From IMG/VR virus record IMGVR_UViG_3300043399_000371, positions 100,285 through 164,284 of that record: a stretch of 64,000 nucleotides of DNA. One strand, written 5' to 3'. The notes beneath the pieces were generated by a model, which was given only the letters and a program-made list of their open reading frames with translations, did not search any database and was not told the DNA's origin. Made by a program: the position numbers and the translations under genes. This document shows positions 16,675-30,304 of this stretch, piece by piece. This DNA comes from a virus (lineage: Duplodnaviria; Heunggongvirae; Uroviricota; Caudoviricetes). How positions within the stretch are numbered: position 1 is the stretch's first letter; each line of letters opens with the position of its first letter.

Positions 16675-16683
16675 TATTTATTT

Positions 16684-16759: not shown

Positions 16760-16802
16760 AATGTGTGTATATTACAGGAATACACCAACCTTGTCAATAC
16801 TT

Positions 16803-16876: not shown

Positions 16877-16877
16877 A

Positions 16878-17540: not shown

Positions 17541-17577
17541 ATTAACTCCGATTGAATAGATTTAATATTTATCTATA

Positions 17578-17654
17578 TGGGGTGTTCAGTCGGATTCGAA
17601 CCGACAACCATCTGACTCACAATCAGAGACTTTGCCAATTAAGCTATGAACACC
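17578..17654 (-). tRNA. tRNA-His(GTG) with encoded G-1
   Basis: Anticodon stem TCTGA/TCAGA, loop TTGTGAG. 5' GGTGTTC pairs with GAACACC, giving an extra 5' G opposite the discriminator C as in tRNA-His. Confidence 0.75.
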
Positions 17655-17661
17655 ATAATTT

Positions 17662-17739
17662 TGGAGCGGGTAGGGAGATTCGAACTCCTCACTTGAGGTT
17701 TGGAAGACCGCCGTGCTAACCGTTAAACACTATACCCGC
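17662..17739 (-). tRNA. tRNA-Gly(TCC)
   Basis: Acceptor GCGGGTA/TACCCGC, anticodon loop CTTCCAA (one stem mismatch), T-loop TTCGAAT. Confidence 0.6.
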
Positions 17740-17747
17740 TAACTGTT

Positions 17748-19184
17748 TTAGATTACTTTGTATCGATCTTGCAAAACAGTTTTAAGCATGATCGACTCTG
17801 GTGTGAACTGTTCCAGATCAGCAGCAAGAACAGACTTCATAATTGCTGGTGAGAACCCAGAAACTAGTGCAGTCCCTTCCTTATCAAACTTCACAGGAAC
17901 ATTATCGTGTGCATTCAAGTTCCAGAACACAATTTTTGGAAGCTTATAACCAGCAGCTTCATATTGCTTCCGAATCATTTTGAATGCAGTATAGTCAGGA
18001 CGACAAGCAGCATCAAATTGCATATCGGAAAGGATTAGAAGAACCTCTGGCATTTCTTCTTGTGATACTTTACCCTTTGTTGCGGTTTTAAGAATCAACT
18101 TAAATGCTGCTTCAAGATCGGTATTCATTCCCCAATCAGAAGAAACCATCTGTTCAATTTTCTGATTGATGTTTCCTTTCAGATAAAGGAGTTCTGGATT
18201 TCCAGAGAAAGTCAAGAAAGCATCCTTGAACTTACCAACATTTTTATCTGCTAGGTAAAGTCCTAGAGAAACAGCAATTTCCATACAAGTAGTCTTAGAC
18301 TTACCAGCAGGACTATTCATAGAACCAGAAACATCAACAAGAGGAAGAATCTTAGCATCCCCAACATAGTTAGGTAGTGCTTCCCATTGTTTTTCAATGA
18401 GTTTTAGTTCTGTACCACTAAACTTAATATAGTGGCGAATACGACCCTTTAGAACATCGTGGGGGAAAATCGCACCAGCATTAACCTTCACAGTAGGATC
18501 ATCACCCTTAACAAGCTTATCGATATACTCTTGATACTTTGCTGGAGCATTACGATAGAAAGCTTTTTTGTATCGTGAAGATGCAACAGAAGGCACATGG
18601 CTGAAATTGATATCATCCCATTGTTTTGCACACATCTGAGTCTCAACAACCTTAGTTAGTTCGACTAGACGCTTACGATAAAACTTAGGTGTCCAACCAA
18701 GATGATTACGAAGTGCAACTGCGGCATCACCTTTACGTGGCATCCATTTAGCACATAGACCATCGTTGCTAGCAAGAGCGTCTTTAATCATGTTAAAGAC
18801 ATTTTCTTGGTTTTTATTCCAAGCATCACCAATTGCAAGAACATCATCCCAACGACCTAGTTCTGGTGCTTTCGATGCTAGAGCAAAAGCAGCAGCAGGA
18901 TCATGTTTATCAAGATGCTTTAGGATATCACGGTATATTTGACGTTCACCAGCACCACCACGAACATCACGTACCCAAGCAGCGATACGTAGAGCAAGAT
19001 CTTTGTCTTCCACATAAGCAGCAACGAAATCGGGAATGATGTCTTTTCCGCGTGAAGCACCTACTTTGAAGAATAGGTCAACACAGGCACTACCAGTACG
19101 TTTACGGGCTTTCATACCGTTAGTAGTAGTAGTTTTTTGGTTTTGGATTGCGTTTACAAAAGTAGTCATATTATTTCCTTTCAA
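17748..19184 (-). CDS. Ro60/TROVE-like protein with C-terminal vWA (MIDAS) domain
   Basis: 478 aa. MIDAS LPLVDVSGSM and downstream LLILSDMQ parallel human Ro60 (VDVSASM ... FIVFTDNE). Helical N-terminal region. Adjacent to tRNA genes. Confidence 0.6.
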   Translation of the reverse strand: MKGNNMTTFVNAIQNQKTTTTNGMKARKRTGSACVDLFFKVGASRGKDIIPDFVAAYVEDKDLALRIAAWVRDVRGGAGERQIYRDILKHLDKHDPAAAFALASKAPELGRWDDVLAIGDAWNKNQENVFNMIKDALASNDGLCAKWMPRKGDAAVALRNHLGWTPKFYRKRLVELTKVVETQMCAKQWDDINFSHVPSVASSRYKKAFYRNAPAKYQEYIDKLVKGDDPTVKVNAGAIFPHDVLKGRIRHYIKFSGTELKLIEKQWEALPNYVGDAKILPLVDVSGSMNSPAGKSKTTCMEIAVSLGLYLADKNVGKFKDAFLTFSGNPELLYLKGNINQKIEQMVSSDWGMNTDLEAAFKLILKTATKGKVSQEEMPEVLLILSDMQFDAACRPDYTAFKMIRKQYEAAGYKLPKIVFWNLNAHDNVPVKFDKEGTALVSGFSPAIMKSVLAADLEQFTPESIMLKTVLQDRYKVI

Positions 19185-19454
19185 TTCAACAGGTTAATTT
19201 TTAGTCAATGTATCAAATTGATTTTTCATAAGTTGCGGAACTTAACCTAAAATCAACAGAATAGCTTTTTTGCGTGGTTACAATTACAAGTTGTATGCAT
19301 TTTTGTTGCTGTAACTATTCTAAAAACAACGGGATAGTTGTTCTCATCTTTTTATCCTGCTTTACGAGTCTTCGCAGTTTGCCTGACACTATGTAATCAG
19401 GCTTCTCTTTTATTAGAGGTTGCTGTCACCTATCCCAAAACCTTTACTGCTCAA

Positions 19455-19495
19455 CATGGTGTAATTATGTCACACCACCAACAACTTGTCAAGCA
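19455..19495 (-). promoter_or_regulatory. sigma70-like early promoter (TTGACA-N17-CATAAT) driving a ~270-nt leader plus the Ro60-like gene
   Basis: Minus-sense gtgcTTGACAagttgttggtggtgtgaCATAAT. Lies inside the 3' end of the upstream ORF. Confidence 0.5.
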
Positions 19496-19959
19496 CTTTT
19501 TAGTGTTTTATATCTATCTGCTGCGTAAGATGCTGCAAATGCTCTAGGTTTAACCATTGGAATTACATTGCAAGTTCCTTTGATATAACCAATAGCTTCA
19601 TTTACAACACAAGATGACCCATGAACTTCATTTGGATTGATGTCTAGGTGGACTTCAACGTCACGGTCTTCCAATACATCAGCAAGTTTTAGATACATTT
19701 CCGAAACTTTATAAGCTTCGTTCATTAATCGGTATCGTGGTTTGTCTTGTTTTTGGTCATAATCCCTTTCGCGGATAATTTCACCAAAAACTTTACAACC
19801 ATTTTTACCATTCATATGAACAACGATAGCAATAATGTAATCTGCATACCATTGACCATTTGATTTAAAACGTTCGGAATCACACCCAAGATAAATTTTA
19901 GTCTCAGGTGACTGAGAATCGATGAACATTTTTACTTCTTCTAAATTTATCTTAGACAT
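19489..19959 (-). CDS. YkuK/DUF458-like RNase H-fold protein
   Basis: Blocks IYLGCDSER, YIIAIVVH, HLDINPNEVHGS and IPMVKPRAFAASYAAD recall B. subtilis YkuK. This is from memory. Confidence 0.45.
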   Translation of the reverse strand: MSKINLEEVKMFIDSQSPETKIYLGCDSERFKSNGQWYADYIIAIVVHMNGKNGCKVFGEIIRERDYDQKQDKPRYRLMNEAYKVSEMYLKLADVLEDRDVEVHLDINPNEVHGSSCVVNEAIGYIKGTCNVIPMVKPRAFAASYAADRYKTLKSA

Positions 19960-19980
19960 GATAACCCCTTTTTTATTGTG

Positions 19981-20053
19981 CTACGGTGGAGGGATTCGAA
20001 CCCCCAACAACTGATTTTGGAGATCAGGACTCTTCCAGTTGAGCTACACCGTA
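19981..20053 (-). tRNA. tRNA-Trp(CCA), CCA not encoded
   Basis: Acceptor TACGGTG/CACCGTA, anticodon stem CTGAT/ATCAG, loop CTCCAAA, T-arm GGGGGTTCGAATCCCTC. Confidence 0.75.
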
Positions 20054-20063
20054 ATTGAAAAAA

Positions 20064-20139
20064 TGGAACCTCTTGAGAGAATCGAACTCACATTCCCAGA
20101 TTCGTATTCTGGAGTCCTAGTCCGTTGAACGAAAGAGGT
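20064..20139 (-). tRNA. tRNA-Arg(ACG)
   Basis: Acceptor ACCTCTT/AAGAGGT, anticodon stem CCAGA/TCTGG, loop ATACGAA, T-loop TTCGATT (T-T mismatch at 50:64). Confidence 0.65.
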
Positions 20140-20334
20140 TTAGTTGATAAGATATTTGTATAATTGAACTAACTTTTCACCATAAGCACCTATAATAGTT
20201 AAAAGACTAAAAATAGTTACTAGACTCAAAGCAATCCACTTATTCGAATCGTTTGATGTAGATAAGGCTATGGCAAATATTTCATTGCCCAATATTCGTA
20301 TCTTTATTTCGTATGTTTTCTGTTGGTTTTCCAC
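20140..20334 (-). CDS. possible small membrane protein
   Basis: 64-aa hydrophobic ORF. Overlaps the next ORF by 53 nt. Confidence 0.25.
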   Translation of the reverse strand: MENQQKTYEIKIRILGNEIFAIALSTSNDSNKWIALSLVTIFSLLTIIGAYGEKLVQLYKYLIN

Positions 20335-20569
20335 TATAAATATTCACTTTAAATATTTTTGGAAAATTCTTTCTATGTATATTACAAATACGAATTATAC
20401 ACAAGTAATCATGTACTGGAAATCCTTGTCTCTTCCCGTCTCTCGTATCATATAATAGATTTAAAAAATACTGATGCATATCATAACTACCCCACAACAA
20501 CATAATTTTTTTTGCTATATGTGGATATTTTATTGATATCACATCAAATTCTTTTGTTTGTATAAACAT
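20282..20569 (-). CDS. hypothetical protein
   Basis: 95-aa ORF. Confidence 0.4.
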   Translation of the reverse strand: MFIQTKEFDVISIKYPHIAKKIMLLWGSYDMHQYFLNLLYDTRDGKRQGFPVHDYLCIIRICNIHRKNFPKIFKVNIYSGKPTENIRNKDTNIGQ

Positions 20570-20581
20570 TTTTTTATAGAT

Positions 20582-20938
20582 TTATCTCTGACCACCAAAA
20601 TAAGGTTTTGCCAGATTTTCTGTTATGAGCAAATCGTTTACAGACACCGATTCATCCAGATTTAGATACAATTTTGCTAAGTATCTTCCATATTTATCTG
20701 TTTTAAATGTTTGTATGTATATCTTCTTATCAAGAACTAAATCTATTAATCTTTGTTTAGCTTTTTTGGCTAGTTCTCTTTCTTCTGCAACAGATGATGT
20801 TAATTCTTCAGTATCAATCCCATAAAGTCTTAACCTCTGATGGGAATATACAGAAAAACCAAGATCAACAGAAACATCAATAGTGTCTCCATCCACCACA
20901 TTTAATACTTTTGCTTCAAACAAATAATACATTTTCAT
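20582..20938 (-). CDS. staphylococcal-nuclease (SNase)-like thermonuclease
   Basis: VDGDTI, RLRLYGIDTEE, DKYGRYLA and the C-terminal ENLAKPYFGG block match the SNase signature. Confidence 0.7.
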   Translation of the reverse strand: MKMYYLFEAKVLNVVDGDTIDVSVDLGFSVYSHQRLRLYGIDTEELTSSVAEERELAKKAKQRLIDLVLDKKIYIQTFKTDKYGRYLAKLYLNLDESVSVNDLLITENLAKPYFGGQR

Positions 20939-20958
20939 CTCCGAAATCTGATTATTTG

Positions 20959-21612
20959 TTATTTATGTTTCACTCTTCCTCTTCTCCATCCTTCTGGTAT
21001 AGGATCTGTTTTCAATATCTTTTTATTTTTTTCACCATCAGTAATCCACATAGTTCCATATTGAGAATTTTTTGTTGGATCGGAAAGTCTTTTTTTAGCT
21101 TTTTCAGACATATTTCTTTTAGTTTCTTCACTATGAGTCTTACCAACAAAAGCACCATTAGGATATTTTTTCTTAAATTGTTCAAAACCTTTTTTAGCAT
21201 TGTTTCTTATGTGTTCTCTAAACAGAGAATCAGATTTATATTTTTCTTTCCATTTTTTTATTCTATCTTCATGGCTAATCAAAGAATTTAATCTTTTTTC
21301 TGTCAAATACTTTTCAGGATTTGTGTTTATCCAATCCCAACCACCAAATCCACCTATTTTAAGATTATATGTATTTTCAGTAGCAAGAAATTCTTCATTA
21401 ACAATTTCAGCTTCTTTTTGGTACATAAGTTCTGGTGTATCAAAAACAAACAATATTTCTTTGGTAAAATTTTCTATACCATATTTTTCTATTGCTTTTT
21501 TAAGATACTTACCGGAACCCACATATTTGTCATCCAGATCTTTGGTCTTATGGCTTCCAATATAGAACTTGCCATCAATCTGATTTGTTATCTTATAAAT
21601 TGTGTAGTACAT
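20959..21612 (-). CDS. GIY-YIG homing endonuclease (Seg-like) with C-terminal NUMOD-like DNA-binding region
   Basis: N-terminal YTIYKITNQIDGKFYIGS is a GIY-YIG motif. The basic C-terminus carries WITDG. Confidence 0.75.
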   Translation of the reverse strand: MYYTIYKITNQIDGKFYIGSHKTKDLDDKYVGSGKYLKKAIEKYGIENFTKEILFVFDTPELMYQKEAEIVNEEFLATENTYNLKIGGFGGWDWINTNPEKYLTEKRLNSLISHEDRIKKWKEKYKSDSLFREHIRNNAKKGFEQFKKKYPNGAFVGKTHSEETKRNMSEKAKKRLSDPTKNSQYGTMWITDGEKNKKILKTDPIPEGWRRGRVKHK

Positions 21613-21667
21613 AGTAAACTCCTATGTACATATTTATAAGTTTCGAGTCTTGACATCAACTCAAGGG

Positions 21668-21742
21668 TCCGTGTGGCAAGATTCGAACTTGCGGTTTCTA
21701 CGCCCCAAACGTAGCGACTTGACCGGACTAGCCTACACACGG
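21668..21742 (-). tRNA. tRNA-Pro(TGG), CCA not encoded
   Basis: Acceptor CCGTGTG/CACACGG, D-arm GGCT/AGTC, anticodon stem CTACG/CGTAG, loop TTTGGGG, T-arm GCAAGTTCGAATCTTGC. Confidence 0.75.
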
Positions 21743-22402
21743 TTATTCTTGTTCATAAAATTTGTTTAGTACATTCTGATCAGTACCATAACACCATGAA
21801 GGACGTTTTTCAATTTCTTGCCAATCAACATAAAATGGTTGTTTATTTTTTTGTATTACATTTATATTGCTTTTTTCACCATCACTAGCTGAAACATTAA
21901 ATGATATATTTTCTATCTCACCACGAAATTCTGATGTAATCAAATATGTCAATGCTGGCAAATCATTTTTATATCTTGATGTTTGTGTGTGTTTCTTGTT
22001 TCTTGGATCGAATTCCCTAGAATCATGAAATAACATAAAACCACCATTTTTCAATTTACTCCAAATGATTCTAGCAATTTTATGTCTTGCTGGAACTAAA
22101 CCATCTATGAACGCCACATCTATTTCAGAAATCTGTTTCACGATTCCCTTTAAGTCAGAAGATATAATAGCATTTTGAAAATTTAACTGTTTAATTCTTT
22201 CGCTTACAGTAGAAACCCATTGTGGATTGTGTTCATAAGCGAATACTTGTTTTGAAGTTTGTGCGAAGATCATAGTGCTTCCACCAGACCCATGCTCAAA
22301 AACAACTTCAGAATTTGATCCATATTTTGCAAGAACATCAGCATCTTGTAAACTGAGATCACCAACCCATCTAATATTTTGAAGATATTTAAATCTACTC
22401 AT
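21743..22402 (-). CDS. putative class-I SAM-dependent methyltransferase (start moved to internal Met because the listed start lies inside tRNA-Leu)
   Basis: VFEHGSGGST is a glycine-rich motif I. RBS agga lies 8 nt upstream of the M26 ATG. The track ORF 21743..22477 would overlap the tRNA. Confidence 0.4.
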   Translation of the reverse strand: MSRFKYLQNIRWVGDLSLQDADVLAKYGSNSEVVFEHGSGGSTMIFAQTSKQVFAYEHNPQWVSTVSERIKQLNFQNAIISSDLKGIVKQISEIDVAFIDGLVPARHKIARIIWSKLKNGGFMLFHDSREFDPRNKKHTQTSRYKNDLPALTYLITSEFRGEIENISFNVSASDGEKSNINVIQKNKQPFYVDWQEIEKRPSWCYGTDQNVLNKFYEQE

Positions 22403-22419
22403 TATTTTCCTATATCTTG

Positions 22420-22501
22420 TACGGATGGTGAGATTCGAACTCACACGCCTTTCGACACGGACTTCTAAGGACCGCACGGCTACCAGTTACGTCATATCCG
22501 C
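22420..22501 (-). tRNA. tRNA-Leu(TAG), type II, CCA not encoded
   Basis: T-arm GTGAGTTCGAATCTCAC, acceptor GCGGATA/CATCCGT (one mismatch), 3-bp D-stem, anticodon loop CTTAGAA, long variable arm. Confidence 0.55.
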
Positions 22502-22938
22502 TTTTTATTATTTTTCCCCGAATTTGTACTTGTTTGTGCGTGACAATTCGGACAAATAATTCGTAAATTTTTCATATCATTATTATAATGATTACCATCT
22601 ATATGATCAAGTTCAATCGGAACTTTTTGACTCATCCATTCTGATATATTACACACTTCACATCTATGTTCTTTTATACCTTCTCTAATCAATTTTAATT
22701 TTAATTTGTGAGCAGACACATAGTTGTTTTTAATATATTCAGAAGCACTTATATAAGTTTTATCGTTTTTAGATCCTCTAGAACCCTGATTACCGACATA
22801 TGTTATGCCCATAATTTGAAGATAACGTTCTAGAGTTTCTGGTTTACATTTTAAAATTTTGCAAATGTAAGCTTTAGGGCGATTTTCCGTTATCCAAATA
22901 AGAATATCTTGTTTTTTATCTAAAATATCATTTCGCAT
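22492..22938 (-). CDS. HNH homing endonuclease
   Basis: C-terminal ELDHIDGNHYNNDMKNLRIICPNCHAQ. Confidence 0.75.
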   Translation of the reverse strand: MRNDILDKKQDILIWITENRPKAYICKILKCKPETLERYLQIMGITYVGNQGSRGSKNDKTYISASEYIKNNYVSAHKLKLKLIREGIKEHRCEVCNISEWMSQKVPIELDHIDGNHYNNDMKNLRIICPNCHAQTSTNSGKNNKKRI

Positions 22939-23017
22939 ACAATTCCTTTTTATAGTATACTCAATGTATTTATAACTATTGCCTCTTCCAATTGGGCTAC
23001 ATCCGCATTTAATTCTT

Positions 23018-23133
23018 TGGCGCTGCTGCTAGGATTCGAACCTAGATCTCTTCCTTGACATGGAATTTTAGTATGCTGTACGTATCCATTACTGGATCAC
23101 TTTTTAAGTATCCTACCATTAGACGACAGCAGC
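23018..23133 (-). pseudogene. interrupted tRNA-Asp(GTC)-like element: 5' and 3' halves separated by ~41-nt insert carrying a GNRA hairpin
   Basis: 3' half: anticodon stem ATTCC/GGAAG with loop ATGTCAA, T-arm CTAGGTTCGAATCCTAG, then CAGCAGC-G-CCA. The pairing 5' half GCTGCTG-TC-GTCT-AATGGTA lies ~115 nt away. The insert contains ATCCA-GTAA-TGGAT. Confidence 0.4.
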
Positions 23134-23135
23134 TT

Positions 23136-23215
23136 TGGTGCGAATGGCCGGGATCGAACCGGCACGACCTTTCGGTCGGCAGATTTTCGTACCACTATAG
23201 CTTTCGCTACCCATA
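23136..23215 (-). pseudogene. tRNA-like element (perfect T-arm, Ser-like variable arm CGACCGAAAGGTCG) lacking a resolvable D-arm and anticodon arm
   Basis: T-arm GCCGGTTCGATCCCGGC then CATTCGC-A-CCA. The only 5' partner is GCGAAAG, which makes it 67 nt, too short for a tRNA. Confidence 0.35.
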
Positions 23216-23316
23216 TTTAGTAAACATAGTTTGTGGTCTGGACTTTATCTTTACCATACTATTATAAATAGTTTAGGTAGTGCCTGTCAAGTCTCTACAC
23301 CTCCAAAGGGAATCAT

Positions 23317-23781
23317 ATGAAATTACGCAAATATACGAAAGAGCAATTAGAACAAGCGGTTTTAACATCAGTATCTCTTAGACAAGTCTTGGAAAAACTA
23401 AACGTTAAAATGGCAGGAGGTAATTATTCCACTCTTAAAAAAGCAATCAAGTATTACAATCTAAATACAGATCATTTTACAGGAATGAATCTTAAAGGTA
23501 GATCATTACCACCAAGACGAAGACCAATCAAAGATTATCTAACAAAAGAGTCTGGTGTACAATCAAATAAACTCAGAAAATATTTACTTGATGAAAATGT
23601 ATTCCAACATCAATGTTCATCTTGTAATCTAACTTCATGGTTAGATTCAAAAATTCCACTTGAACTCGATCATATAGATGGTGATAACATGAATAACGAA
23701 TTATCCAATCTTCGACTTCTTTGTCCGAACTGTCATGTTCTAACACCAACGTATAGAGGCAAAAACATACGAAAAACCTAA
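23317..23781 (+). CDS. HNH homing endonuclease
   Basis: ELDHIDGDNMNNELSNLRLLCPNCHVLTPT. This is the only plus-strand gene within the minus-strand tRNA cluster. Confidence 0.75.
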   Translation: MKLRKYTKEQLEQAVLTSVSLRQVLEKLNVKMAGGNYSTLKKAIKYYNLNTDHFTGMNLKGRSLPPRRRPIKDYLTKESGVQSNKLRKYLLDENVFQHQCSSCNLTSWLDSKIPLELDHIDGDNMNNELSNLRLLCPNCHVLTPTYRGKNIRKT

Positions 23782-23782
23782 G

Positions 23783-24029
23783 TTTGGCTCGGGGTTGGCA
23801 TTTTAAAGCTTTCTCCGAATTTAAGCACATTCACACTAGAAGTTTCCTATCTAGGTGCTCAATTTACTTAAGTCTGCTGCGGCTACCAATTACGCCACAC
23901 TCGCAAAAATCAACAGGATACTTTTTAGATGTCTGCTCTACCAATGAGCTATTCTTCCAAGCGGAAAAAGTTGGGGTCGAACCAACTACCTAACATTTAT
24001 GTTAGAATTGCTGCGTGTATCCTAAAACT
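23783..24029 (-). other. cluster of degenerate tRNA-like pieces (D-arm AGCTCATTGGTAGAGC; T-arm GTTGGTTCGACCCCAAC; 6-nt-loop anticodon-like hairpin)
   Basis: Canonical arm motifs are present, but no complete cloverleaf with a paired acceptor could be built by hand. Confidence 0.35.
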
Positions 24030-24104
24030 TGGTGCCTCTTGCCGGTTATGCTCCAACGACTACGGGTTACAAATCCGTTGTTTTTCTAATTAAACTAAAG
24101 AGGC
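24030..24104 (-). tRNA. tRNA-Thr(TGT) with non-canonical T-loop (AGCATAA)
   Basis: Acceptor GCCTCTT/AAGAGGC, D-arm GTTT/AAAC, anticodon loop TTTGTAA. CCA is encoded. Confidence 0.5.
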
Positions 24105-24458
24105 TATAAAATCTTTATTTATATTTTCTATGGGTACAACTATAAGTTTTATGTTATTTTGATTAATAACACTATCTATCTTTTCTTTATCCTTTATTAT
24201 AAGGTATTCATTTTTTGTATCGAAAAAAACATTACCAACTTTAAAATCTGGATAATATCTATGATGAATACCGTTTTTGTCTTTCCAAATAAATGGTTTT
24301 GGCCTTTCCCATTCTACTTCAAGTTCCTCAAGAATAGTTGCAAACATTATTTCATATGAACTATGTAGGTAAACATCACTACCATCTTTTTTACGGAACC
24401 AAATTTTATTTTTAGAAGTATGACCACCTAAGTTATTTTTGATAGCCAAATCTCTCAT
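24090..24458 (-). CDS. PD-(D/E)XK nuclease-fold protein (YYPDF...DTK), possible homing-type nuclease
   Basis: Shares the Y(Y/F)PDF motif with ORF 1..393. Its last 5 codons overlap the tRNA-Thr 5' end. Confidence 0.45.
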   Translation of the reverse strand: MRDLAIKNNLGGHTSKNKIWFRKKDGSDVYLHSSYEIMFATILEELEVEWERPKPFIWKDKNGIHHRYYPDFKVGNVFFDTKNEYLIIKDKEKIDSVINQNNIKLIVVPIENINKDFIASLV

Positions 24459-24923
24459 TTTTTCTTTGAATTCTGGTGGGTGTCCAGTTAAAGCCCTTCC
24501 CCATTTTCTTCCTATAAACTGAGGTCTTGCAATATTAGGATTATCTTCTTATGTCAATCCTTTATTCCAAGGAGATTTCCCTTTTCTTCCATTTTGGATT
24601 TTTCTGTTTGGATTATCTTTACATCTTTGTTCGTGTTGCAATAAAGATGAATTTTTTCCATACTCTTTTAAACAGTATTTACATTTTAACATATATTATA
24701 TTTTATAATAATTCTTTTACGACTGACTCCTTGTTTTGTTCCGCCTCTCTTATTCGGAACCATTTCACCCTTGAATACTAGGCCGGCAGGGTCAGAGGTA
24801 AGTAGTTATAGTTGATACGTGCTAGTTGCTGTGTTGTCGGACTCGCACCGTTAGCTTTCTAATTGTATGCCTACAACTGATTTCTCAACATCTACAACAA
24901 AGTGTCATGCGTAAAAGAACTAT

Positions 24924-24999
24924 TGGTGCCTGTAGTTGGGATCAAACCAACGACCTATCGGTTATCGACCGATTGCTCTATCAACTGAGCTATACAGGC
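24924..24999 (-). tRNA. tRNA-Ile(GAT)
   Basis: Acceptor GCCTGTA/TACAGGC, D-arm GCTC/GAGC, anticodon stem ATCGG/CCGAT, loop TCGATAA, T-loop TTTGATC. Confidence 0.65.
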
Positions 25000-25102
25000 A
25001 AACTTGGTCACAGATCAGTCTATGCCATCGGTTACTGCGGTAGCCGATTATTTTCAAGACAGGCAGAGGTGTGTTATTTAAGGCGCACAACATTTCCTAA
25101 AT

Positions 25103-25184
25103 TGGTGGGTTGGGTAGGAATCGAACCTACTTGCCGAAGCCACGGGGTTACAGCCCGCTGCCCTACCATTAGAGCATCCAACCC
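25103..25184 (-). tRNA. tRNA-Tyr(GTA) with variable-arm mini-hairpin
   Basis: Acceptor GGGTTGG/CCAACCC, anticodon stem GCGGG/CCCGT, loop CTGTAAC, variable arm GGCTTCGGCAA, T-arm GTAGGTTCGATTCCTAC. Confidence 0.7.
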
Positions 25185-25227
25185 ATGTTTCTACTATATC
25201 ACAACTTTACTACTGATGCAACATTTT

Positions 25228-25305
25228 TGGTAGTGATGGTTGGAATCGAACCAACACCATTCTTCCTTATGAGGGAAGCGCACAGACCATTTATGCTACA
25301 TCACC
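25228..25305 (-). tRNA. tRNA with CAT anticodon (Met or Ile2), copy 1
   Basis: Acceptor GGTGATG/CATCACT, anticodon stem CTTCC/GGAAG, loop CTCATAA, T-arm GTTGGTTCGATTCCAAC. Confidence 0.65.
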
Positions 25306-25310
25306 ATATT

Positions 25311-25389
25311 TGGCTCCGCATTAGGGAATCGAACCCTACTAGCCATTGATTAACAGTCAAGCCCATGCACCTTGCTCGGGTTCTGCGGA
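25311..25389 (-). tRNA. tRNA-Asn(GTT)
   Basis: T-arm TAGGGTTCGATTCCCTA, acceptor TCCGCAG/ATGCGGA (mismatch at 7:66), anticodon loop CTGTTAA in stem TTGA/TCAA. Confidence 0.55.
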
Positions 25390-25458
25390 ATCGATACTAC
25401 AGGTTAGCTTTATAACATTCCAATATGTTTTTTTATATTGCTGGACCTAACCTAAAAC

Positions 25459-25536
25459 TGGTTGCGGAGGATGGATTCGAACCACCGACCTTCAGCTTAT
25501 GAGGCTGACGAGATGACCAGACTTCTCTACTCCGCA
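25459..25536 (-). tRNA. tRNA with CAT anticodon (Met or Ile2), copy 2
   Basis: Acceptor TGCGGAG/CTCCGCA, D-arm GAGA/TCTC, anticodon stem TCAGC/GCTGA, loop CTCATAA, T-loop TTCGAAT. Confidence 0.65.
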
Positions 25537-25543
25537 ACAAAAC

Positions 25544-25620
25544 TGGTGGAAGATATCGGATTTGAACCGATCTGAATATCCGCATTGCAAGTGCGGCGAA
25601 CACCCCTAGCATTCCCATCC
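25544..25620 (-). tRNA. probable tRNA-Ala(TGC); 5' boundary and D-arm unresolved
   Basis: Anticodon stem CCGCA/TGCGG with loop CTTGCAA, T-arm ATCGGTTCAAATCCGAT, 3' ATCTTCC-A-CCA. No clean 5' acceptor partner was found. Confidence 0.4.
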
Positions 25621-25636
25621 CCCGAATTATTATATA

Positions 25637-25714
25637 TGGCGACTCAGACGGGATTCGAACCCGTGATATCTTGCTCGACAGGCAAGTGCATTAGACCAAC
25701 TATGCTACTGAGCC
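25637..25714 (-). tRNA. tRNA-Asp(GTC)
   Basis: Acceptor GGCTCAG/CTGAGTC, D-arm GCAT/ATGC, anticodon stem CTTGC/GCAAG, loop CTGTCGA, T-arm ACGGGTTCGAATCCCGT. Confidence 0.7.
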
Positions 25715-25809
25715 AAAAATGTTTCGCTGTCACGGCTTTTTGCGAAACTTCTCACGAAAGAATCTCTTGATTCCTTACCGTACCATTCGATGTGTGTGAG
25801 ATATTTTAA

Positions 25810-25893
25810 ACCATATTAAAGTAAACTAATCAGGTACACTATATAGTCTACGACAATCACTCAAGCTTATTGACTAGCATACTTTAATATGGT
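25810..25893. repeat. 12-nt inverted repeat ACCATATTAAAG / CTTTAATATGGT flanking ~60 nt
   Basis: Exact reverse complements at 25810..25821 and 25882..25893. On the minus-strand transcript they would form a 12-bp stem. Confidence 0.7.
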
Positions 25894-26003
25894 GACGGTA
25901 TAAGGAATCTATCTCCGTCTGTGCAGAAGTCATTTCAACCATCCTGCGAGGGTTGTCCACCATATAAAGGGTGAACCCGGTGTCCCCTGCGCCTCTGCAT
26001 CTA

Positions 26004-26103
26004 ACCATATTAAAATACACTAGTAAGAAGATCAATCCAATTGGCTGATGATTGCTTCTTTAGGTTGCCAAACCCGTAACTAACTAATGTACTTTAATAT
26101 GGT
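26004..26103. repeat. inverted repeat ACCATATTAAAA / CTTTAATATGGT; right arm includes the CCA end of tRNA-Lys
   Basis: 11/12 complementarity. The right arm at 26092..26103 overlaps the tRNA-Lys terminal ACCA. Confidence 0.65.
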
Positions 26104-26174
26104 ACGGGCAGAGGGATTCGAACCCACAACTTATCGGTTAAAAGCCGATTACTCTACCATTGAGTTATACCCGC
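26100..26174 (-). tRNA. tRNA-Lys(TTT)
   Basis: Acceptor GCGGGTA/TGCCCGT, D-arm ACTC/GAGT, anticodon stem ATCGG/CCGAT, loop CTTTTAA, T-loop TTCGAAT. Confidence 0.7.
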
Positions 26175-26321
26175 AAAATCTTACCACTCTTGTCACTATC
26201 CATAACAGGACTCCTTTTATTAATGGTTGGCATTACGAACTTTAGCCGTACTTCTAACGTGAGTACCGAAAATGTATCGTAGACACATCGTTTTCTTACG
26301 CCCACAAGGGATTTGAGGAAT

Positions 26322-26398
26322 TGGTGTCTCCAGAGGGACTTGAACCCACAACCAACGGCTTATGAGGCCGCTGCTCTGACCGATTGAGCTATAGAGAC
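26322..26398 (-). tRNA. tRNA with CAT anticodon (Met, fMet or Ile2), copy 3
   Basis: Acceptor GTCTCTA/TGGAGAC, D-arm GCTC/GAGC, anticodon stem GCGGC/GCCGT, loop CTCATAA, T-loop TTCAAGT. Confidence 0.65.
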
Positions 26399-26441
26399 TT
26401 AATCTTCAACAGTACGCATTATACAGGATCAACCAACTTTG

Positions 26442-27083
26442 TCAATAGGTCAAATGTTCATGTTGATTCTTAATTTTCTTCTTAAGCATCGTCTGAATTC
26501 CCGGATTCACTACTAATGCAGATTTCACCATTTCTTTACGAATAAAATTCCGCATGAATGATGTATCTTCATTACTAGGATCGTTAATATACACGATTTT
26601 CTTTCTCGATGCCCAATCAACAATTTCTTCTTTCTCTGTAATCAAGAAAGGTCGAACAACATTTTTATTACGATAAGGAATCAGTTTCGGTGTTCCATGT
26701 AGAGAACTCCAAATCCATGTTTCCAATACGTCACCAAGATGATGTCCAGTAACAACCATATCAAACTGACTAAGAAACTTATATCGTTCCTCTCGCCAAA
26801 ACTCTTCTTTACTTTGTTCTTTAGGTTTTGTCGAAGTCAATTTACCTACAACAAGAGGCAGAGAATTATTTTTACAGTAATGTGTAAGAAACAGTTCTGC
26901 TTCCTGTCCATGTTGTGTGCCGTGATTGAAATAAGCAACTTGTACTTCATGATTCCGTTTAAGGAAGTCTAGAACTACCATGCTATCAATACCACCAGAA
27001 CAAGCAACAGTAACTTTCCGTTGCACACCAAATAGCATTTTCAACATATTCAATATTCCTTTTAGGATACCATATTGAAACAC
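26442..27083 (-). CDS. tilS: tRNA(Ile)-lysidine synthetase TilS (catalytic N-type ATP-pyrophosphatase domain only); true start probably the internal Met at ~27047
   Basis: PP-loop VACSGGIDS, VTGHHLGDVLET (E. coli TilS: TAQHLDDQCET) and NDPSNEDTSFMRNFIR (DESNQDDSYDRNFLR). The listed GTG start lies inside an inverted-repeat stem. Confidence 0.7.
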   Translation of the reverse strand: MFQYGILKGILNMLKMLFGVQRKVTVACSGGIDSMVVLDFLKRNHEVQVAYFNHGTQHGQEAELFLTHYCKNNSLPLVVGKLTSTKPKEQSKEEFWREERYKFLSQFDMVVTGHHLGDVLETWIWSSLHGTPKLIPYRNKNVVRPFLITEKEEIVDWASRKKIVYINDPSNEDTSFMRNFIRKEMVKSALVVNPGIQTMLKKKIKNQHEHLTY

Positions 27084-27164
27084 ACTCTTTGCAAATATCC
27101 CACCGCTCCGGAACGGTTACAACGGGTCCAACGTCAGGGGTTGGCGAATGTATTTCAATATGGT
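27069..27164. repeat. perfect 12-nt inverted repeat ACCATATTGAAA / TTTCAATATGGT; right arm includes the tRNA-Glu ACCA end, left arm abuts the TilS RBS
   Basis: Exact reverse complements at 27069..27080 and 27153..27164. Confidence 0.7.
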
Positions 27165-27236
27165 ACTCGGAGTGGGAATTGAACCCGACATTTCATCCTT
27201 GAAAGGGATGCGTCCTAACCACTAGACGACCCGAGC
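27161..27236 (-). tRNA. tRNA-Glu(TTC)
   Basis: Acceptor GCTCGGG/TCCGAGT (G-U pairs at both ends), D-arm GTCT/GGAC, anticodon stem CATCC/GGATG, loop CTTTCAA. T-stem is weak. Confidence 0.6.
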
Positions 27237-27296
27237 ATATTTTATATAAATTTTTAAAGAACGTTGCTGACTTGTTTCGTTCAGCGCATGGTGTGA

Positions 27297-27325
27297 ACTA
27301 TACTGGAGTCGCACACACTTGTCAA
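27297..27325 (-). promoter_or_regulatory. consensus sigma70 promoter TTGACA-N17-TATAGT ~55 nt upstream of tRNA-Glu
   Basis: Minus-sense ggtgTTGACAagtgtgtgcgactccagTATAGTtcac. Confidence 0.6.
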
Positions 27326-27341
27326 CACCACCAACAAAAAA

Positions 27342-27366
27342 CCCCAAGATTTTTTAGGTCTTGGGG
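27342..27366. terminator. rho-independent terminator hairpin CCCCAAGAT-TTTTTAG-GTCTTGGGG with A-run/T-run flanks (copy 1 of 2)
   Basis: Identical sequence recurs at 30342..30366. Confidence 0.7.
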
Positions 27367-27391
27367 TTTCTTTTTTAAGTTTAGTTAGATT

Positions 27392-28105
27392 TTATGCAAA
27401 CCTACCTGCAACTTTTCCTAAGAAACCACCAACTTTAGATGCTCCGGTATTGATAGCTGTCTTTACTTTATTCTTGACATTTTCAACACCTGTATCTATA
27501 CGTTTTGCTAATACACCGCGTCTGCCCTCAACATTACCGGCAGTAGCACTAGCAGATTTTCTCTTTGTCTCAGCAGTTTTATATGCTTCTTTTGCTTTTG
27601 CTGCCCTATCCTGAACTGTCTTAGACTTATTAACAGCAAATGCATACTTTGCTCTCTCTAATGGATTTTTACCAACAGGCGCAGTTCTGGCAGCATCTGC
27701 GGCAGATTTGGCCTTTACACCCATTTGAGTTGACTTTTCTTTTGCTTGTTGTGCTTGAGATGTAGCTTTCTGTTTTGCTCTATTTGCTAAGAACCCTTTA
27801 ATACCATATCTAGCACCAGCAACAAATGTACCAATTGACTCATCCAAAAGAACATCATACAGTTCTTCATACAATGGTGTATTAATATCATATCCAGTAA
27901 TTGCTTCTAAAGCAGACTCTTTCAAAGTTGGATACTTAAAGTTTTCCTCAAAATAATCCATAAGAATAGATGTGATATATGCATCTTCTTCTGTCATAAC
28001 ATAATCTTCATCTACATCATAGTTTTCTTCGATAAACTGATCAAGAATAGTAAAGAAAAGTTCTTGTCTTTCTTGAATTTGCTCTTCTGTAAGTTGTTGT
28101 AACAT
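27392..28105 (-). CDS. hypothetical protein with acidic N-half and Ala/Lys-rich low-complexity C-half
   Basis: 237-aa ORF. Confidence 0.5.
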   Translation of the reverse strand: MLQQLTEEQIQERQELFFTILDQFIEENYDVDEDYVMTEEDAYITSILMDYFEENFKYPTLKESALEAITGYDINTPLYEELYDVLLDESIGTFVAGARYGIKGFLANRAKQKATSQAQQAKEKSTQMGVKAKSAADAARTAPVGKNPLERAKYAFAVNKSKTVQDRAAKAKEAYKTAETKRKSASATAGNVEGRRGVLAKRIDTGVENVKNKVKTAINTGASKVGGFLGKVAGRFA

Positions 28106-28136
28106 AAAAATCCCTATAGCGTTATATTATTTATAC

Positions 28137-29903
28137 TTATTTAGCTTTCTTTTTCTGAATCAAAATTGGTTTTGGTGCAGAATATTCTTTACCTCTTGCC
28201 TTTTCTTGTTCTTCTGGTCTATCTATCTCATACTCACCATTATGTTGTTTAGCGTGTTCAATATGATCATCACTAACATCATGCGTAAAATTAGAATGGT
28301 GTTGAACATCGCTAGTGGAAGTTGTTGGTGTTGTTACTAAAATAGCACCAGCATCTTTACCATTTTTAGATTTGAATCTTTCTTTTGGTAAAAATTCATT
28401 ATCCTTAAATCTAGAATCTGTTGGAATTTTATGACCATCAACATCAACTAATCTTGGATGAAGAATATGTTGTTTTTGATAATCGTATCTTCTAGCTTTA
28501 CCATCATCACCAACTACAGTTCTATGACCGTAATGTGCTTTATCTGGAGTGGTTGGTCTACCTTCACCGTCATAATGTCCCTCTGGTCCTTCAGCTTTTT
28601 CACTATCAGATAATTCATGTTCTTCTCTACCTTCAGACCAATACTTAGCATGAGTTACGTGTTGTTGGAATTTTTTATCCATTTCTCCACCACGTTTCAT
28701 ATTTGTTACCATATATGAATTTTTTGGTGGTGTCATATTTCCTTCATCATTTTTAATATCTTCACCTGAAGATTGTGTAGCATGAATTGTCTGACGAACA
28801 CGAATTCTATCTTTTTTCTTATTTTCAGTAATTTCTTTTCCGTGTTTCACTTTTGGACCAGTATTAGAATATGTTACATGATAACCATTTTCTGGATCAT
28901 GTAATTCTGTCGTTTTTCCATAAGAATTAGCAATAATAGCTGGTCTTCCTTCTGTTGCACGTTGTCTGTTTAAATGTTTAATAACGTGTCTTGAACTACG
29001 ATCAGTTTCATCCACAACATTAGGTCTAAAAAGAAAACGTTTTTTTCTTTTATCTGCTGCATCTGCACGATTTCTTAGTGAATGTGTGTGGGCTAAAACC
29101 CAATCGCTTGTCATTGCTGGATCGTGTTTAGCTTGTTCATGACAGGCTCTTCTCACAGCAGCATTTACATATTGTGATTCTGCTTTAGGCGCAAAACAAG
29201 TTCCACGCGATGTATCAACAACACCTTCAGCATCAACACCACCACCACAACCTTCTGTCTGTGCTGGACAAGTATTTAAAATGTGATGTCTCTGATTTTC
29301 TCCGTGTCCTGATGTGTAAACAGCATGACCAGCAACACCTTTAGATGCTGCTGCTTCAAAAGTTCTACCTTGTTCATCATGTTCATGTTTTACTGTATCT
29401 GTCTTTTCGCCTTCATCTGTTGTATCTTTACTGTCTAGGTGTCTTGCTTTATGTAAACGTTCAATAGCTTCTTTTTCTGCTTTAATTTGTTCTTGTTTTG
29501 GTTTTGAAAAATGGTCTTCTAAAACTTTTTTATGCACACTTTCAATTTGACCAAGACCTAAAGGTGGACGATGTTCGCCACCATAAATTTTTGCTCTTGC
29601 TTCATTCCTTTCATTCATACCCATCGCACCAGATTTTTCACTACCTTCCCACATATGTCTAGGAACTACAATTCCTTTAGCTTTTGATTTACCGTCACCA
29701 TCATGTTTAAAAAGTAAACGTTTTGGGTTAGGATGATCATGAACGGATTCTTTAATCATATCGGCATTTTTGATTGGAATATAATCATTAACACCAAAAA
29801 GAGAATTTTGTACATTATGTTCTTGGGTATATTGTGGATGTGTCTCATCCATATCAATAGTGTGTATATCAGACTCTTTCAAAAATGTTTTAAATGATAA
29901 CAT
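28137..29903 (-). CDS. CTS-bearing large His/Asp/Lys-rich protein with Cys cluster; candidate packaged internal protein
   Basis: N-terminus MLSFKTFLKESD is CTS-like. 588 aa, very His-rich. Contains CPAQTEGCGGG...TCF...ACHEQ. Confidence 0.5.
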   Translation of the reverse strand: MLSFKTFLKESDIHTIDMDETHPQYTQEHNVQNSLFGVNDYIPIKNADMIKESVHDHPNPKRLLFKHDGDGKSKAKGIVVPRHMWEGSEKSGAMGMNERNEARAKIYGGEHRPPLGLGQIESVHKKVLEDHFSKPKQEQIKAEKEAIERLHKARHLDSKDTTDEGEKTDTVKHEHDEQGRTFEAAASKGVAGHAVYTSGHGENQRHHILNTCPAQTEGCGGGVDAEGVVDTSRGTCFAPKAESQYVNAAVRRACHEQAKHDPAMTSDWVLAHTHSLRNRADAADKRKKRFLFRPNVVDETDRSSRHVIKHLNRQRATEGRPAIIANSYGKTTELHDPENGYHVTYSNTGPKVKHGKEITENKKKDRIRVRQTIHATQSSGEDIKNDEGNMTPPKNSYMVTNMKRGGEMDKKFQQHVTHAKYWSEGREEHELSDSEKAEGPEGHYDGEGRPTTPDKAHYGHRTVVGDDGKARRYDYQKQHILHPRLVDVDGHKIPTDSRFKDNEFLPKERFKSKNGKDAGAILVTTPTTSTSDVQHHSNFTHDVSDDHIEHAKQHNGEYEIDRPEEQEKARGKEYSAPKPILIQKKKAK

Positions 29904-29948
29904 AAAATATTTTCCTATAAATAAAGTATTTCTTCTATTTATAAGATT

Positions 29949-30023
29949 TGGAGTGCGTAGTAGGAATCAAACCTACCTAAAACTGTTTTGCAGACAGTTG
30001 CCTCATCATTCGACCATACGCAC
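29949..30023 (-). tRNA. tRNA-Cys(GCA)
   Basis: Acceptor GTGCGTA/TACGCAC, anticodon stem ACTGT/ACAGT, loop CTGCAAA, T-arm GTAGGTTTGATTCCTAC. Confidence 0.65.
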
Positions 30024-30028
30024 ATAAT

Positions 30029-30124
30029 TGGCGGTGTGTAATGGATTCGAACCATTGGGGCAGTTTATTAGACTACCCAACTTCTTAGCAGGAAGCCGCC
30101 TTCGACCAACTCAGCCAACACACC
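30029..30124 (-). tRNA. tRNA-Ser(GCT), type II with very long variable arm
   Basis: Acceptor GGTGTGT/ACACACC, 3-bp D-stem, anticodon stem GCTTC/GAAGT, loop CTGCTAA, T-arm AATGGTTCGAATCCATT. Confidence 0.6.
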
Positions 30125-30133
30125 TTAAATTTT

Positions 30134-30224
30134 TGGCGGAAGTTAAAGGATTCGAACCCTCACCGGCGACTAACCGATGGCGACGGTTTTCAAGACCGTT
30201 TGTACACCATGTACGCTAACTTCC
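30134..30224 (-). tRNA. tRNA-Ser(TGA), type II
   Basis: Acceptor GGAAGTT/AACTTCC, anticodon stem ACGGT/ACCGT, loop CTTGAAA, long variable arm, T-loop TTCGAAT. Confidence 0.6.
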
Positions 30225-30229
30225 AATTT

Positions 30230-30304
30230 TGGCAGGGATGTCGGGATTCAAACCCAACCTAACAGAGTCAAAGTCTGTTGTGCTAATCGCTACACTACAC
30301 CCCA
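30230..30304 (-). tRNA. tRNA-Gln(TTG)
   Basis: D-arm GTGT/GCAC, anticodon stem ACAGA/TCTGT, loop CTTTGAC, T-arm TTGGGTTTGAATCCCGA. Position 1:72 is a U-U mismatch. Confidence 0.6.

Follow-up and report, generated by a model that had tools for sequence, protein, structure and literature searches.

A catalytic-domain-only TilS homologue encoded beside a putative tRNA-Ile2 in the tRNA array of a T4-like phage

A stretch of 64,000 nucleotides (nt) from the virus record IMGVR_UViG_3300043399_000371 (positions 100,285 to 164,284; here called the window) encodes a small homologue of TilS, which is tRNA(Ile)-lysidine synthetase, together with three tRNAs of anticodon CAU, one of which lies directly after the tilS gene. 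The product of this gene ('mini-TilS') comprises only the N-terminal, catalytic domain (NTD) of TilS, and the neighbouring tRNA carries the anticodon-arm features by which E. coli tRNA-Ile2 differs from elongator tRNA-Met. The phage thus probably supplies its own AUA-decoding pair, mini-TilS and tRNA-Ile2, from inside an array of 24 tRNA genes. The four genes concerned are as follows, the tRNAs (located by ARAGORN) being named A, B and C throughout.

26442..27047, minus strand: tilS, 201 amino acids, NTD-only tRNA(Ile)-lysidine synthetase homologue (mini-TilS).
25228..25305, minus strand: tRNA(CAU) A, elongator tRNA-Met-like, with C27-G43, C30-G40, A44, G1.U72 and U3:A70.
25459..25536, minus strand: tRNA(CAU) B, initiator tRNA-fMet-like, with A11:U24, G12:C23, U1-A72, G2:C71, C3:G70, G26 and A44.
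26322..26398, minus strand: tRNA(CAU) C, assigned to tRNA-Ile2 and presumed substrate of TilS, with G27.U43, G30-C40, U44 and A73.

An earlier note, made by reading the sequence of the window, had recognized in the open reading frame (ORF) at 26442-27083 a PP-loop SGGIDS and further TilS-specific blocks, and these are present on the minus strand (SGGIDS, HHLGDVLET and NDPSNEDTSFMRNF). The mechanical ORF runs on to a GTG at 27083, the ATG at 27047 being its Met13. This ATG is probably the true start, giving a predicted product of 201 residues, because a Shine-Dalgarno sequence (AAAGGA) stands 9 nt before it, the relatives in the family alignment all start at the equivalent MIKLLGK, and a database protein of 100% identity (P0001) is also 201 residues long. 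Mini-TilS matches Pfam PF01171 over the entire model (positions 1-182 of 182; E=3.7e-33) and reaches 114.8 bits with TIGR02432, the TilS N-terminal equivalog domain of NCBIfam (cutoff 93.6), while the models of other PP-loop tRNA enzymes give 27 (TtcA), 24 (TtuA), 23 (ThiI) and 16 (QueC) bits. Its best sequence matches among solved structures are the TilS of Aquifex aeolicus (7e-21) and of Escherichia coli (TilS/MesJ, 2e-12), with which it shares in HMMER alignments the blocks SGGxDS, E..R..RY, HHLxD..ET, RP(L/F) and DxSNxD...RNxIR; the TilS motifs outside the PP-loop are invariant or nearly so in a 26-sequence alignment of the family. An AlphaFold2 model built from the family alignment has a predicted local distance difference test score of 94.3, and in Foldseek its closest structures are A. 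aeolicus TilS (2E21/1WY5/2E89; template modelling (TM) score 0.82-0.85) and E. coli TilS (1NI5; 0.81), followed by TtuA (0.66-0.78) and then by LarE and QueC (QueC ~0.4). A better match to TtcA- or QueC-type enzymes, which the earlier note had named as grounds for abandoning TilS, is therefore not what is found, TilS being ahead by TIGR02432, by sequence match and by fold. As judged from sequence and predicted structure, the protein is a TilS catalytic domain by every criterion that could be applied here, yet it departs from the domain architecture of both recognized types of TilS.

The TilS literature knows two types only, type I (the NTD followed by C-terminal domains 1 and 2, CTD1 and CTD2) and type II (NTD and CTD1), and holds that no TilS is without an appended domain (PMC11947777). 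Mini-TilS aligns to residues 13-195 of E. coli TilS alone, with 29% identity, and then ends; one helix follows the catalytic core before the chain stops at residue 201. The structural model covers ~218 of the 317 residues of Aquifex TilS (TM score normalised to the target 0.55), and the full-length TilS equivalog NF007942 gives 66 bits where the cutoff is 606. A Pfam search of mini-TilS returned PP-loop-type domains only, with no CTD1 of the kind that characterizes type I and type II enzymes, and E. coli TilS residues 205-432, compared with the window by tblastn, found nothing better than E=2, a search that a remote homologue would escape.

This short form is shared by a large viral family. 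The best 120 homologues among 5.8 billion proteins are all 196-231 residues long, and many are encoded on contigs of 100-460 kb. An exhaustive HMMER search gave 178 clusters (50% identity) at E<=1e-30, the best 150 of which are nearly all of 180-240 residues, the exceptions being fragments (125-172) and a few longer proteins (252-363); in IMG/VR, relatives are encoded on at least 516 stretches. Cultured phages contribute the PA5oct/MIJ3 group of Pseudomonas jumbo phages, whose proteins (~203 residues, 42% identity, annotated tilS) align over 94-96% of the query, and further relatives occur in two uncultured huge phages of 635-642 kb. On sequence grounds mini-TilS is thus a clear member of a phage NTD-only family that includes PA5oct and MIJ3 TilS (~200 residues, MIKLxGK, alignable from end to end), and the catalytic-domain-only build appears as a property of the whole family. 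The claim that the ORF holds only the ~200-residue catalytic domain is borne out by the alignment to E. coli residues 13-195, whereas its description as truncated has to be given up, since all members of the family share one end point. Decay of a full-length TilS gene to a truncated pseudogene was likewise considered and rejected, given this common end point and the promoter and tRNA that follow directly after the gene. The NTD-only class is known from annotation: a short-type phage TilS was reported in MIJ3 and PA5oct in 2019-2020 (PMC6892783, PMC7318152), and the same short type carries an automatic annotation of the Joint Genome Institute (JGI).

A TilS-derived PP-loop enzyme with both tRNA-recognition domains lost could also have taken on another job, such as the attachment of another amine to C34, an action on another RNA or on a DNA cytosine, or the protection of tRNAs from host anticodon nucleases. 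Such a role would agree with the many family loci that have no tRNA nearby, with the members that adjoin an ACU type-II tRNA rather than a CAU tRNA, and with the nearest PHROG being merely a generic 'QueC-like' family (2.6e-08), while the Rnl1- and Rnl2-like ligases of the window suggest a warfare of tRNA damage and repair. Set against this are the TIGR02432 score above its cutoff, the TilS-specific motifs outside the PP-loop that stay invariant across the family, and the enrichment of the loci near tRNA arrays and beside Ile2-type tRNAs; no data point to an alternative substrate, and we regard a different job as highly improbable.

The three CAU tRNAs lie exactly where the earlier note had placed them according to ARAGORN, and the Rfam tRNA model (Infernal) concurs, with 61.5, 66.2 and 70.3 bits for A, B and C respectively (E 2e-11 to 9e-14). 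All three are regular cloverleaves with A73 and an encoded CCA. Their classification used a reference panel for which bacterial genomes were scanned for CTCATAA-N13-14-GGTTCRANTCC (120 loci) and the CAU tRNAs extracted by ARAGORN. The labels follow Silva et al. 2006 (PMC1635315), with A11:U24 plus G12:C23 marking fMet and G3/A3:C70/U70 marking Ile2; non-initiators with C3:G70 were taken as Met, and the annotated ileX, metT/U and metZWV of E. coli provided anchors. The panel comprises 27 Ile2, 17 Met and 54 distinct fMet sequences. The 3:70 rule was rejected as a necessary criterion for Ile2, under which C is not called; the mark is sufficient but not necessary, because E. coli ileX itself has C3:G70. 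A vote among the annotations of phage relatives of A, B and C proved useless, nearly all CAU tRNAs being labelled 'tRNA-Met', even the canonical Ile2-type tRNA of phage 133. A distance classifier that omits the acceptor stem (leave-one-out 36/44) left A undecided, with a ratio of 0.99, and was replaced by position-specific profiles and single determinants; profile log-odds computed without the acceptor stem are non-circular with respect to the labels (leave-one-out 38/44).

By the single determinants, tRNA C groups with Ile2. The G27.U43 pair, present in C, occurs in 15/27 Ile2 sequences, 2/17 Met and 0/54 fMet; a pyrimidine at position 44 (U44 in C) occurs in 23/27 Ile2 and 2/17 Met; and a Watson-Crick pair at 31:39, which C also has, in 27/27 Ile2 and 6/17 Met. 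It is exactly G27.U43, G30-C40 and U44, all found in C, that set E. coli tRNA-Ile2 apart from elongator tRNA-Met, G27.U43 being the E. coli Ile2 counterpart of the C27-G43 of Met; in E. coli elongator tRNA-Met, C27-G43, C30-G40 and G44 are determinants for TmcA (PMC2500205). The Ile2-over-Met profile log-odds are +18.1 bits for C and -28.7 bits for A over the full length, and +13.8 and -12.7 bits respectively without the acceptor stem. The anticodon loop of C is CUCAUAA with A37 and A38, and its D stem is GCUC/GAGC, hence without the A11:U24 mark of initiators. In mean differences it has an Ile/Met ratio of 0.89; 8 positions separate it from the nearest Ile2 body and 12 from the nearest Met body. 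Positions 8-48 of C are almost identical to those of bacterial Ile2 tRNAs and of a tRNA of the T4-like Acinetobacter phage 133, a canonical Ile2-type tRNA that is also its closest phage match (82% overall, acceptor stem GGGCCUA). The acceptor stem of C itself reads GUCUCUA and gives C3:G70, U4:A69 and C5:G68.

The other two CAU tRNAs fall into different classes. With a mean difference of 14.1 to fMet bodies, as against ~22 to the other classes, B resembles initiators, and it carries both A11:U24 and G12:C23, pairs said to discriminate fMet completely (PMC1635315). Its anticodon stem has two G:C pairs (G30:C40 and C31:G39) plus A29:U41, compared with the three canonical in fMet, and some of the panel's bacterial initiators share its weak U1-A72 pair. 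tRNA A is very divergent, with ~24 differences from every class, and for this reason its assignment to Met is partly by elimination. Its homologue in Salmonella phage PVP-SE1 has an identical anticodon arm and likewise G1.U72 and U3:A70; this PVP-SE1 tRNA has U4:A69 and would therefore be rejected by a TilS of the E. coli type (PMC2500205). The assignment of C to Ile2, A to elongator Met and B to an initiator-like fMet is well supported by sequence features, if unproven. The earlier expectation that at least one of the three would be Ile2-like holds for C, and the contrary outcome, in which all would be Met or fMet, did not arise.

The divergence of A invites the reverse assignment, in which A would be the Ile2 substrate and C the elongator tRNA-Met, the adjacency of tilS and C being incidental to the tRNA array. 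The T4 tRNA-Ile(CAU), whose identity is known from experiment, has an anticodon stem that is pyrimidine-rich on its 5' side (GUCCC/GGGAA, with C30:G40 and A44) and closer to A than to C, tRNA C carries C3:G70, which is the usual Met/fMet pair (PMC1635315), and the distance classification of A is neutral. The profile log-odds point the other way for both tRNAs, with and without the acceptor stem; in addition, C27-G43 and C30-G40 of A are E. coli Met determinants, its A5:U68 is a negative determinant for E. coli TilS (PMC2500205), as is the U4:A69 of its PVP-SE1 homologue, E. coli ileX shares the C3:G70 of C, and the tRNAs positionally orthologous to C in other phages are unambiguous Ile2. We therefore consider an exchange of the two roles very unlikely.

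Gene order places tRNA C next to tilS. The earlier note had put a CAU tRNA immediately upstream of tilS; all the genes lie on the minus strand, however, so that tRNA C is found 44 nt downstream (3') of tilS, and the upstream neighbour is a tRNA-Glu. The elements that flank and connect these genes are the following.

27339..27369, minus strand: terminator-like hairpin with a 14-pair stem and T-run, which ends the upstream gene (27392-28105) and parts it from the tRNA-Glu/tilS unit.
27297..27325, minus strand: promoter TTGACA-17-TATAGT, sigma-70-type, 11/12 matches, upstream of tRNA-Glu and tilS.
27161..27236, minus strand: tRNA-Glu(UUC), directly upstream of tilS (Rfam 52.1 bits).
26418..26445, minus strand: promoter TTGACA-16-TATAAT, perfect sigma-70 consensus, which overlaps the tilS stop codon and ends ~20 nt before tRNA C.

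The tRNA-Glu is probably co-transcribed with tilS, from which it is separated by a 113-nt spacer holding the Shine-Dalgarno sequence. Perfect TTGACA-N16-18-TATAAT sites number six in the window, all on the minus strand (8653-8682, 10196-10223, 23261-23290, 26418-26445, 36901-36929 and 47837-47864), where 0.09 would be expected; an overall promoter scan of the window found 9 against 9.5 expected and hence no excess, so that significance attaches to the perfect-consensus sites only. These six sites suggest that the phage depends on the sigma-70 RNA polymerase of its host and on early promoters of consensus sequence, tRNA C having a strong one of its own.

The succession of tilS and a CAU tRNA is repeated in three further phage lineages, and in two of them the tRNA so placed is a canonical Ile2. 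At locus L005/L012 the TilS is 72% identical and a clear orthologue of C lies 39 nt downstream; in L005 this is the single CAU tRNA of an 11-tRNA array whose other members mostly read A- or U-ending codons, as would be expected for an AUA reader. The CAU tRNA stands 44 nt downstream of the mini-tilS in locus L054, 213 nt in L010 and ~1 kb in L002 and L008, and those of L054, L010 and L002 are Ile2 by the strict rule because they have G3:C70. Complete flanks of 10 kb are present at 20 loci, and tRNAs occur close to tilS at 12 of these, including two huge phages in which tilS lies inside arrays of 13 and 25 tRNAs. The arrays of these huge phages also hold a tRNA-Ile(UAU), a lysidine-independent reader of AUA, at 2233-2307 of LR745206.1 (L220) and 3460-3533 of LR756502.1 (L221). 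At three further loci, which are related to one another, an ACU type-II tRNA with a long variable arm and G73, Ser-like and very unusual for bacteria or phages, follows the mini-tilS after 44-53 nt (L007/L013, 10647-10736; L022, 10640-10729).

The sequence analysis shows the gene and tRNA anatomy, the catalytic-domain family, the lack of C-terminal domains, the class assignments of the tRNAs and the conserved synteny; the catalytic activity, the choice of substrate, the physiological benefit and the identity of the host are inferred. The following scheme is proposed. One strong sigma-70 promoter would drive tRNA-Glu and the 201-residue PP-loop-only TilS, and the perfect-consensus promoter over the tilS stop codon would drive the tRNA(CAU) of Ile2 type. 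If mini-TilS acts as its family membership suggests, it would adenylate C2 of C34 in tRNA C, and the epsilon-amine of lysine would then displace AMP to give lysidine (k2C), switching tRNA C from a Met-accepting, AUG-reading to an Ile-accepting, AUA-reading species. The remaining CAU tRNAs would serve as phage initiator and phage elongator tRNA-Met. The purpose would be adequate decoding of AUA in a host that probably uses this codon rarely and supplies little TilS or tRNA-Ile2.

In the 82 non-overlapping ORFs of the window AUA makes up 10.5 per 1000 codons and 14.6% of the Ile codons, compared with 4.9 per 1000 in E. coli and 0.6 in Burkholderia cenocepacia (PMC12514573, Table 1). In efficiency, B. 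cenocepacia TilS falls ~1000-fold short of its E. coli counterpart (PMC12514573, Table 1). As is established, unmodified tRNA-Ile2 is charged by methionyl-tRNA synthetase and reads AUG (PMC12514573). Unless TilS capacity kept pace, phage tRNA-Ile2 produced in a burst from a consensus promoter would thus do nothing for AUA decoding, and this need offers a rationale for the phage bringing the enzyme.

In the TilS field the appended C-terminal domains are seen as the means by which tRNA-Ile2 is told from tRNA-Met, no other bacterial elongator tRNAs having an anticodon in common (PMC11947777). Since an enzyme with neither CTD1 nor CTD2 would not be able to read the acceptor stem, discrimination by mini-TilS would have to come from the anticodon arm, and this arm differs among all three phage CAU tRNAs. 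A CTD2-deleted B. cenocepacia TilS loses acceptor-stem discrimination and still rejects tRNA-Met (PMC11947777), which indicates that reading of the acceptor stem is dispensable for this rejection.

Several observations weigh against an AUA-decoding pair of mini-TilS and tRNA C. The usual acceptor marks of Ile2 are missing from C, which has neither G3:C70 nor C4:G69, and the U4:A69 that it does have acts as a negative determinant with E. coli TilS (PMC2500205). The classifier is imperfect (leave-one-out 36-38/44), the body-only profile giving -3.7 for the known T4 tRNA-Ile. Most family loci have no tRNA within reach, though many of the contigs are short, and at three loci the tRNA directly downstream of tilS is the odd type-II ACU tRNA and not a CAU tRNA. 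CTD1 is present in all TilS characterised so far, and deletion of CTD2 strongly cut the activity of B. cenocepacia TilS (PMC11947777); an enzyme reduced to the NTD might thus be weak, partner-dependent or active on something else. The contrast in codon usage, too, is one with E. coli and B. cenocepacia, and with the host by inference only.

The odd acceptor stem of C, together with the absence of CTD2, can also be read as the mark of an orthogonal pair with relaxed specificity. The phage tRNA-Ile2 would then be a poor substrate of a host type I TilS, which would be the reason for having a mini-TilS, and in the extreme form the phage enzyme would lysidinylate host tRNA-Met or tRNA-fMet and so reprogramme or stop host AUG decoding, from which the divergent phage Met and fMet tRNAs would escape. 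tRNA C and its L005 orthologue both carry C3:G70 and U4:A69, of which the former leads the type I TilS of B. cenocepacia to reject a tRNA-Ile2 by way of CTD2 while the CTD2-deleted enzyme accepts it (PMC11947777), and the latter is the negative determinant for E. coli TilS already mentioned (PMC2500205). The phage has a private full set of three CAU tRNAs with three distinct anticodon stems, and PA5oct has two CAU tRNAs with the same body and different acceptor stems. The tilS-adjacent tRNAs of L010, L054 and L002, however, have the canonical G3:C70, so that orthogonality is no feature of the family at large; a type I TilS in the host is an assumption; the CTD2-deleted B. cenocepacia enzyme rejects tRNA-Met (PMC11947777), so that loss of domains need not bring promiscuity; and the host-takeover form is speculative. 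Such an orthogonal pair or relaxed specificity is in our view unlikely. The fuller proposal to which it belongs, that the ~200-residue viral TilS forms a third architectural class selecting its substrate by the anticodon arm alone, in a private and partly orthogonal pair with a tRNA-Ile2 that host type I TilS rejects, and in its strongest form acting on the CAU tRNAs of the host, is rather unlikely; if true, this strongest form would make lysidine synthesis a tool of host takeover rather than a simple supplement.

An AUA-decoding pair of mini-TilS and tRNA-Ile2, which we prefer, can be set beside several known systems. The nearest is that of PA5oct and MIJ3, whose TilS (gp263 / EST35_0433) is likewise short, NTD-only and encoded by an AT-rich phage (33% G+C vs 66% in the host) with three CAU tRNAs that include Ile2-like ones. 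Transcription of the PA5oct tilS continues all through infection (PMC7318152). A distance of 7-10 kb separates it from the tRNA cluster, unlike the present gene, which lies inside its cluster. The published reading of this enzyme is 'maintaining host viability', all the CAU tRNAs are called Met, and the missing C-terminal domains are not discussed (PMC6892783, PMC7318152). One of the PA5oct CAU tRNAs is initiator-like with C1xA72, and two have an anticodon stem like that of E. coli ileX, one of these with G3:C70. 'tRNA-Met' 1 and 2 of PA5oct (MK797984.1, locus L215; 17559-17635 and 18040-18116) lie in a duplicated Met-Leu(UAA) unit and are identical at positions 8-65, with the acceptor stems CCCUCGG and GGGACUU. 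By these sequence features PA5oct, too, appears to pair a mini-TilS with Ile2-like tRNAs, a point absent from its papers (PMC6892783, PMC7318152). The label 'tRNA-Met' on phage CAU tRNAs can thus hide Ile2 and initiator species, as in PA5oct, where all three bear this label although one is initiator-like and one or more are Ile2-like.

Among characterized enzymes the type II TilS of A. aeolicus (1WY5/2E21/2E89) is the best solved-structure match, with 29% identity and the same PP-loop and TilS motifs, and, having no CTD2, it likewise leaves the acceptor stem unread (type II recognition: PMC11947777, PMC12514573). It is however 317 residues long and keeps a CTD1 that comes close to both anticodon stem and elbow, whereas the phage protein ends at residue 201. 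Type I enzymes (E. coli MesJ, 1NI5; Geobacillus kaustophilus, 3A2K; B. cenocepacia) have the same catalytic domain, and presumably the same chemistry, in proteins of 430-470 residues with CTD1 and CTD2, where CTD2 reads C4:G69 and C5:G68 (E. coli) or 3:70 (B. cenocepacia); the phage protein is without CTD2. T4 and T4-like phages provide a similar background, their tRNA-Ile(CAU) reading AUA after lysidine formation (PMC1524935), and the presence of k2C34 in a tRNA of a vibriophage has been demonstrated (PMC13191261). Classical phages of this group, T4 included, differ in that they have no TilS and rely on the host enzyme (PMC1524935), and the T4 tRNA-Ile keeps the E. coli determinants C4:G69 and C5:G68, while tRNA C has no C4:G69 and its own enzyme alongside. 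The Ralstonia jumbo phage RsoM2USA also combines tRNAs (44) with a TilS homologue, ORF84 (PMC8504454), which to judge by its published length of 349 residues is of type II size and not NTD-only.

The source of the window is a T4-like phage. The window has a G+C content of 37.7% and encodes T4-like core genes, comprising Rnl1- and Rnl2-like RNA ligases and the following.

5707-6609: gp32.
7167-7754: gp59.
10886-11605: PhoH.
12563-13144: ClpP.
14360-15208: RNase H.
33993-34478: DenV.
55081-56370: DNA ligase.

The Rnl2-type and Rnl1-type ligases, whose T4 counterparts are tRNA-repair enzymes, are encoded at 32564-33589 and 60530-61387, both on the minus strand. ARAGORN finds 24 tRNAs and one transfer-messenger RNA (tmRNA) in the window, all on the minus strand and between 9.8 and 30.3 kb.

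16509..30304, minus strand: tRNA array, in which small ORFs and homing-endonuclease-like genes are scattered among 24 tRNA genes, tilS lying inside.
9829-10237, minus strand: tmRNA with tag peptide ANDERFALAA (ARAGORN and Rfam).
24924-24999, minus strand: tRNA-Ile(GAU), the AUU/AUC reader that completes the isoleucine set (ARAGORN).

The tmRNA scores 138 bits with the Rfam model of betaproteobacterial tmRNA (gathering score 84) and also matches the permuted-tmRNA model, which hints at a betaproteobacterial host but is no proof of one; the perfect sigma-70 promoter at 10196-10223 sits at the 5' edge of its gene. At position 33 the tRNA-Ile(GAU) bears C where U is nearly universal (anticodon loop UCGAUAA), and its D-loop and T-loop suggest an A19:U56 pair replacing G19:C56, while a tRNA-Arg(ACG) at 20064-20139 has A32; the C33 and A32 tRNAs may belong to those variants of the anticodon loop for which an escape from host anticodon nucleases has been proposed. 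The tRNA-Tyr (25103-25184, minus strand) is 95.7% identical over 93 nt to that of Ralstonia phage RSP15, the sole near-identical match of the region among deposited phages; a megablast of 24000-28200 against phage genomes gave short tRNA matches only and no close relative, and a tblastn search with a 987-residue ORF gave no match. Set among the tRNAs of the array are a GIY-YIG/NUMOD3 homing-endonuclease-like ORF (20959-21612, minus strand) and a 478-residue protein with DUF2828 and DUF7788 (17748-19184, minus strand). In loci L007 and L011 the latter pair of domains is also encoded, 1-3 kb from mini-tilS, a recurrence suggestive of a gene of unassigned function that accompanies tRNAs.

Phage TilS was already known from the 2019-2020 papers and from JGI annotation, and phage tRNA-Ile(CAU) from T4 and from comparative work of 2006. 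What is added here is the pairing of the enzyme with an Ile2-type tRNA, the recurrence of this pairing in other phage lineages, the family-wide loss of the C-terminal domains and a test bed of three tRNAs. As the gene family had been annotated and reported in cultured phages, the gain lies in mechanistic testability and not in a new system. A large conserved viral family makes do with the catalytic domain alone, and in several phages its gene adjoins the presumptive substrate, which provides a compact natural system for the minimal recognition code of lysidine formation that also bears on the independence of phages from host AUA decoding. The present locus, with one enzyme and three co-encoded CAU tRNAs of three different anticodon stems, is a convenient test case. 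While the result is unsurprising in principle, it makes substrate recognition by a minimal TilS directly testable.

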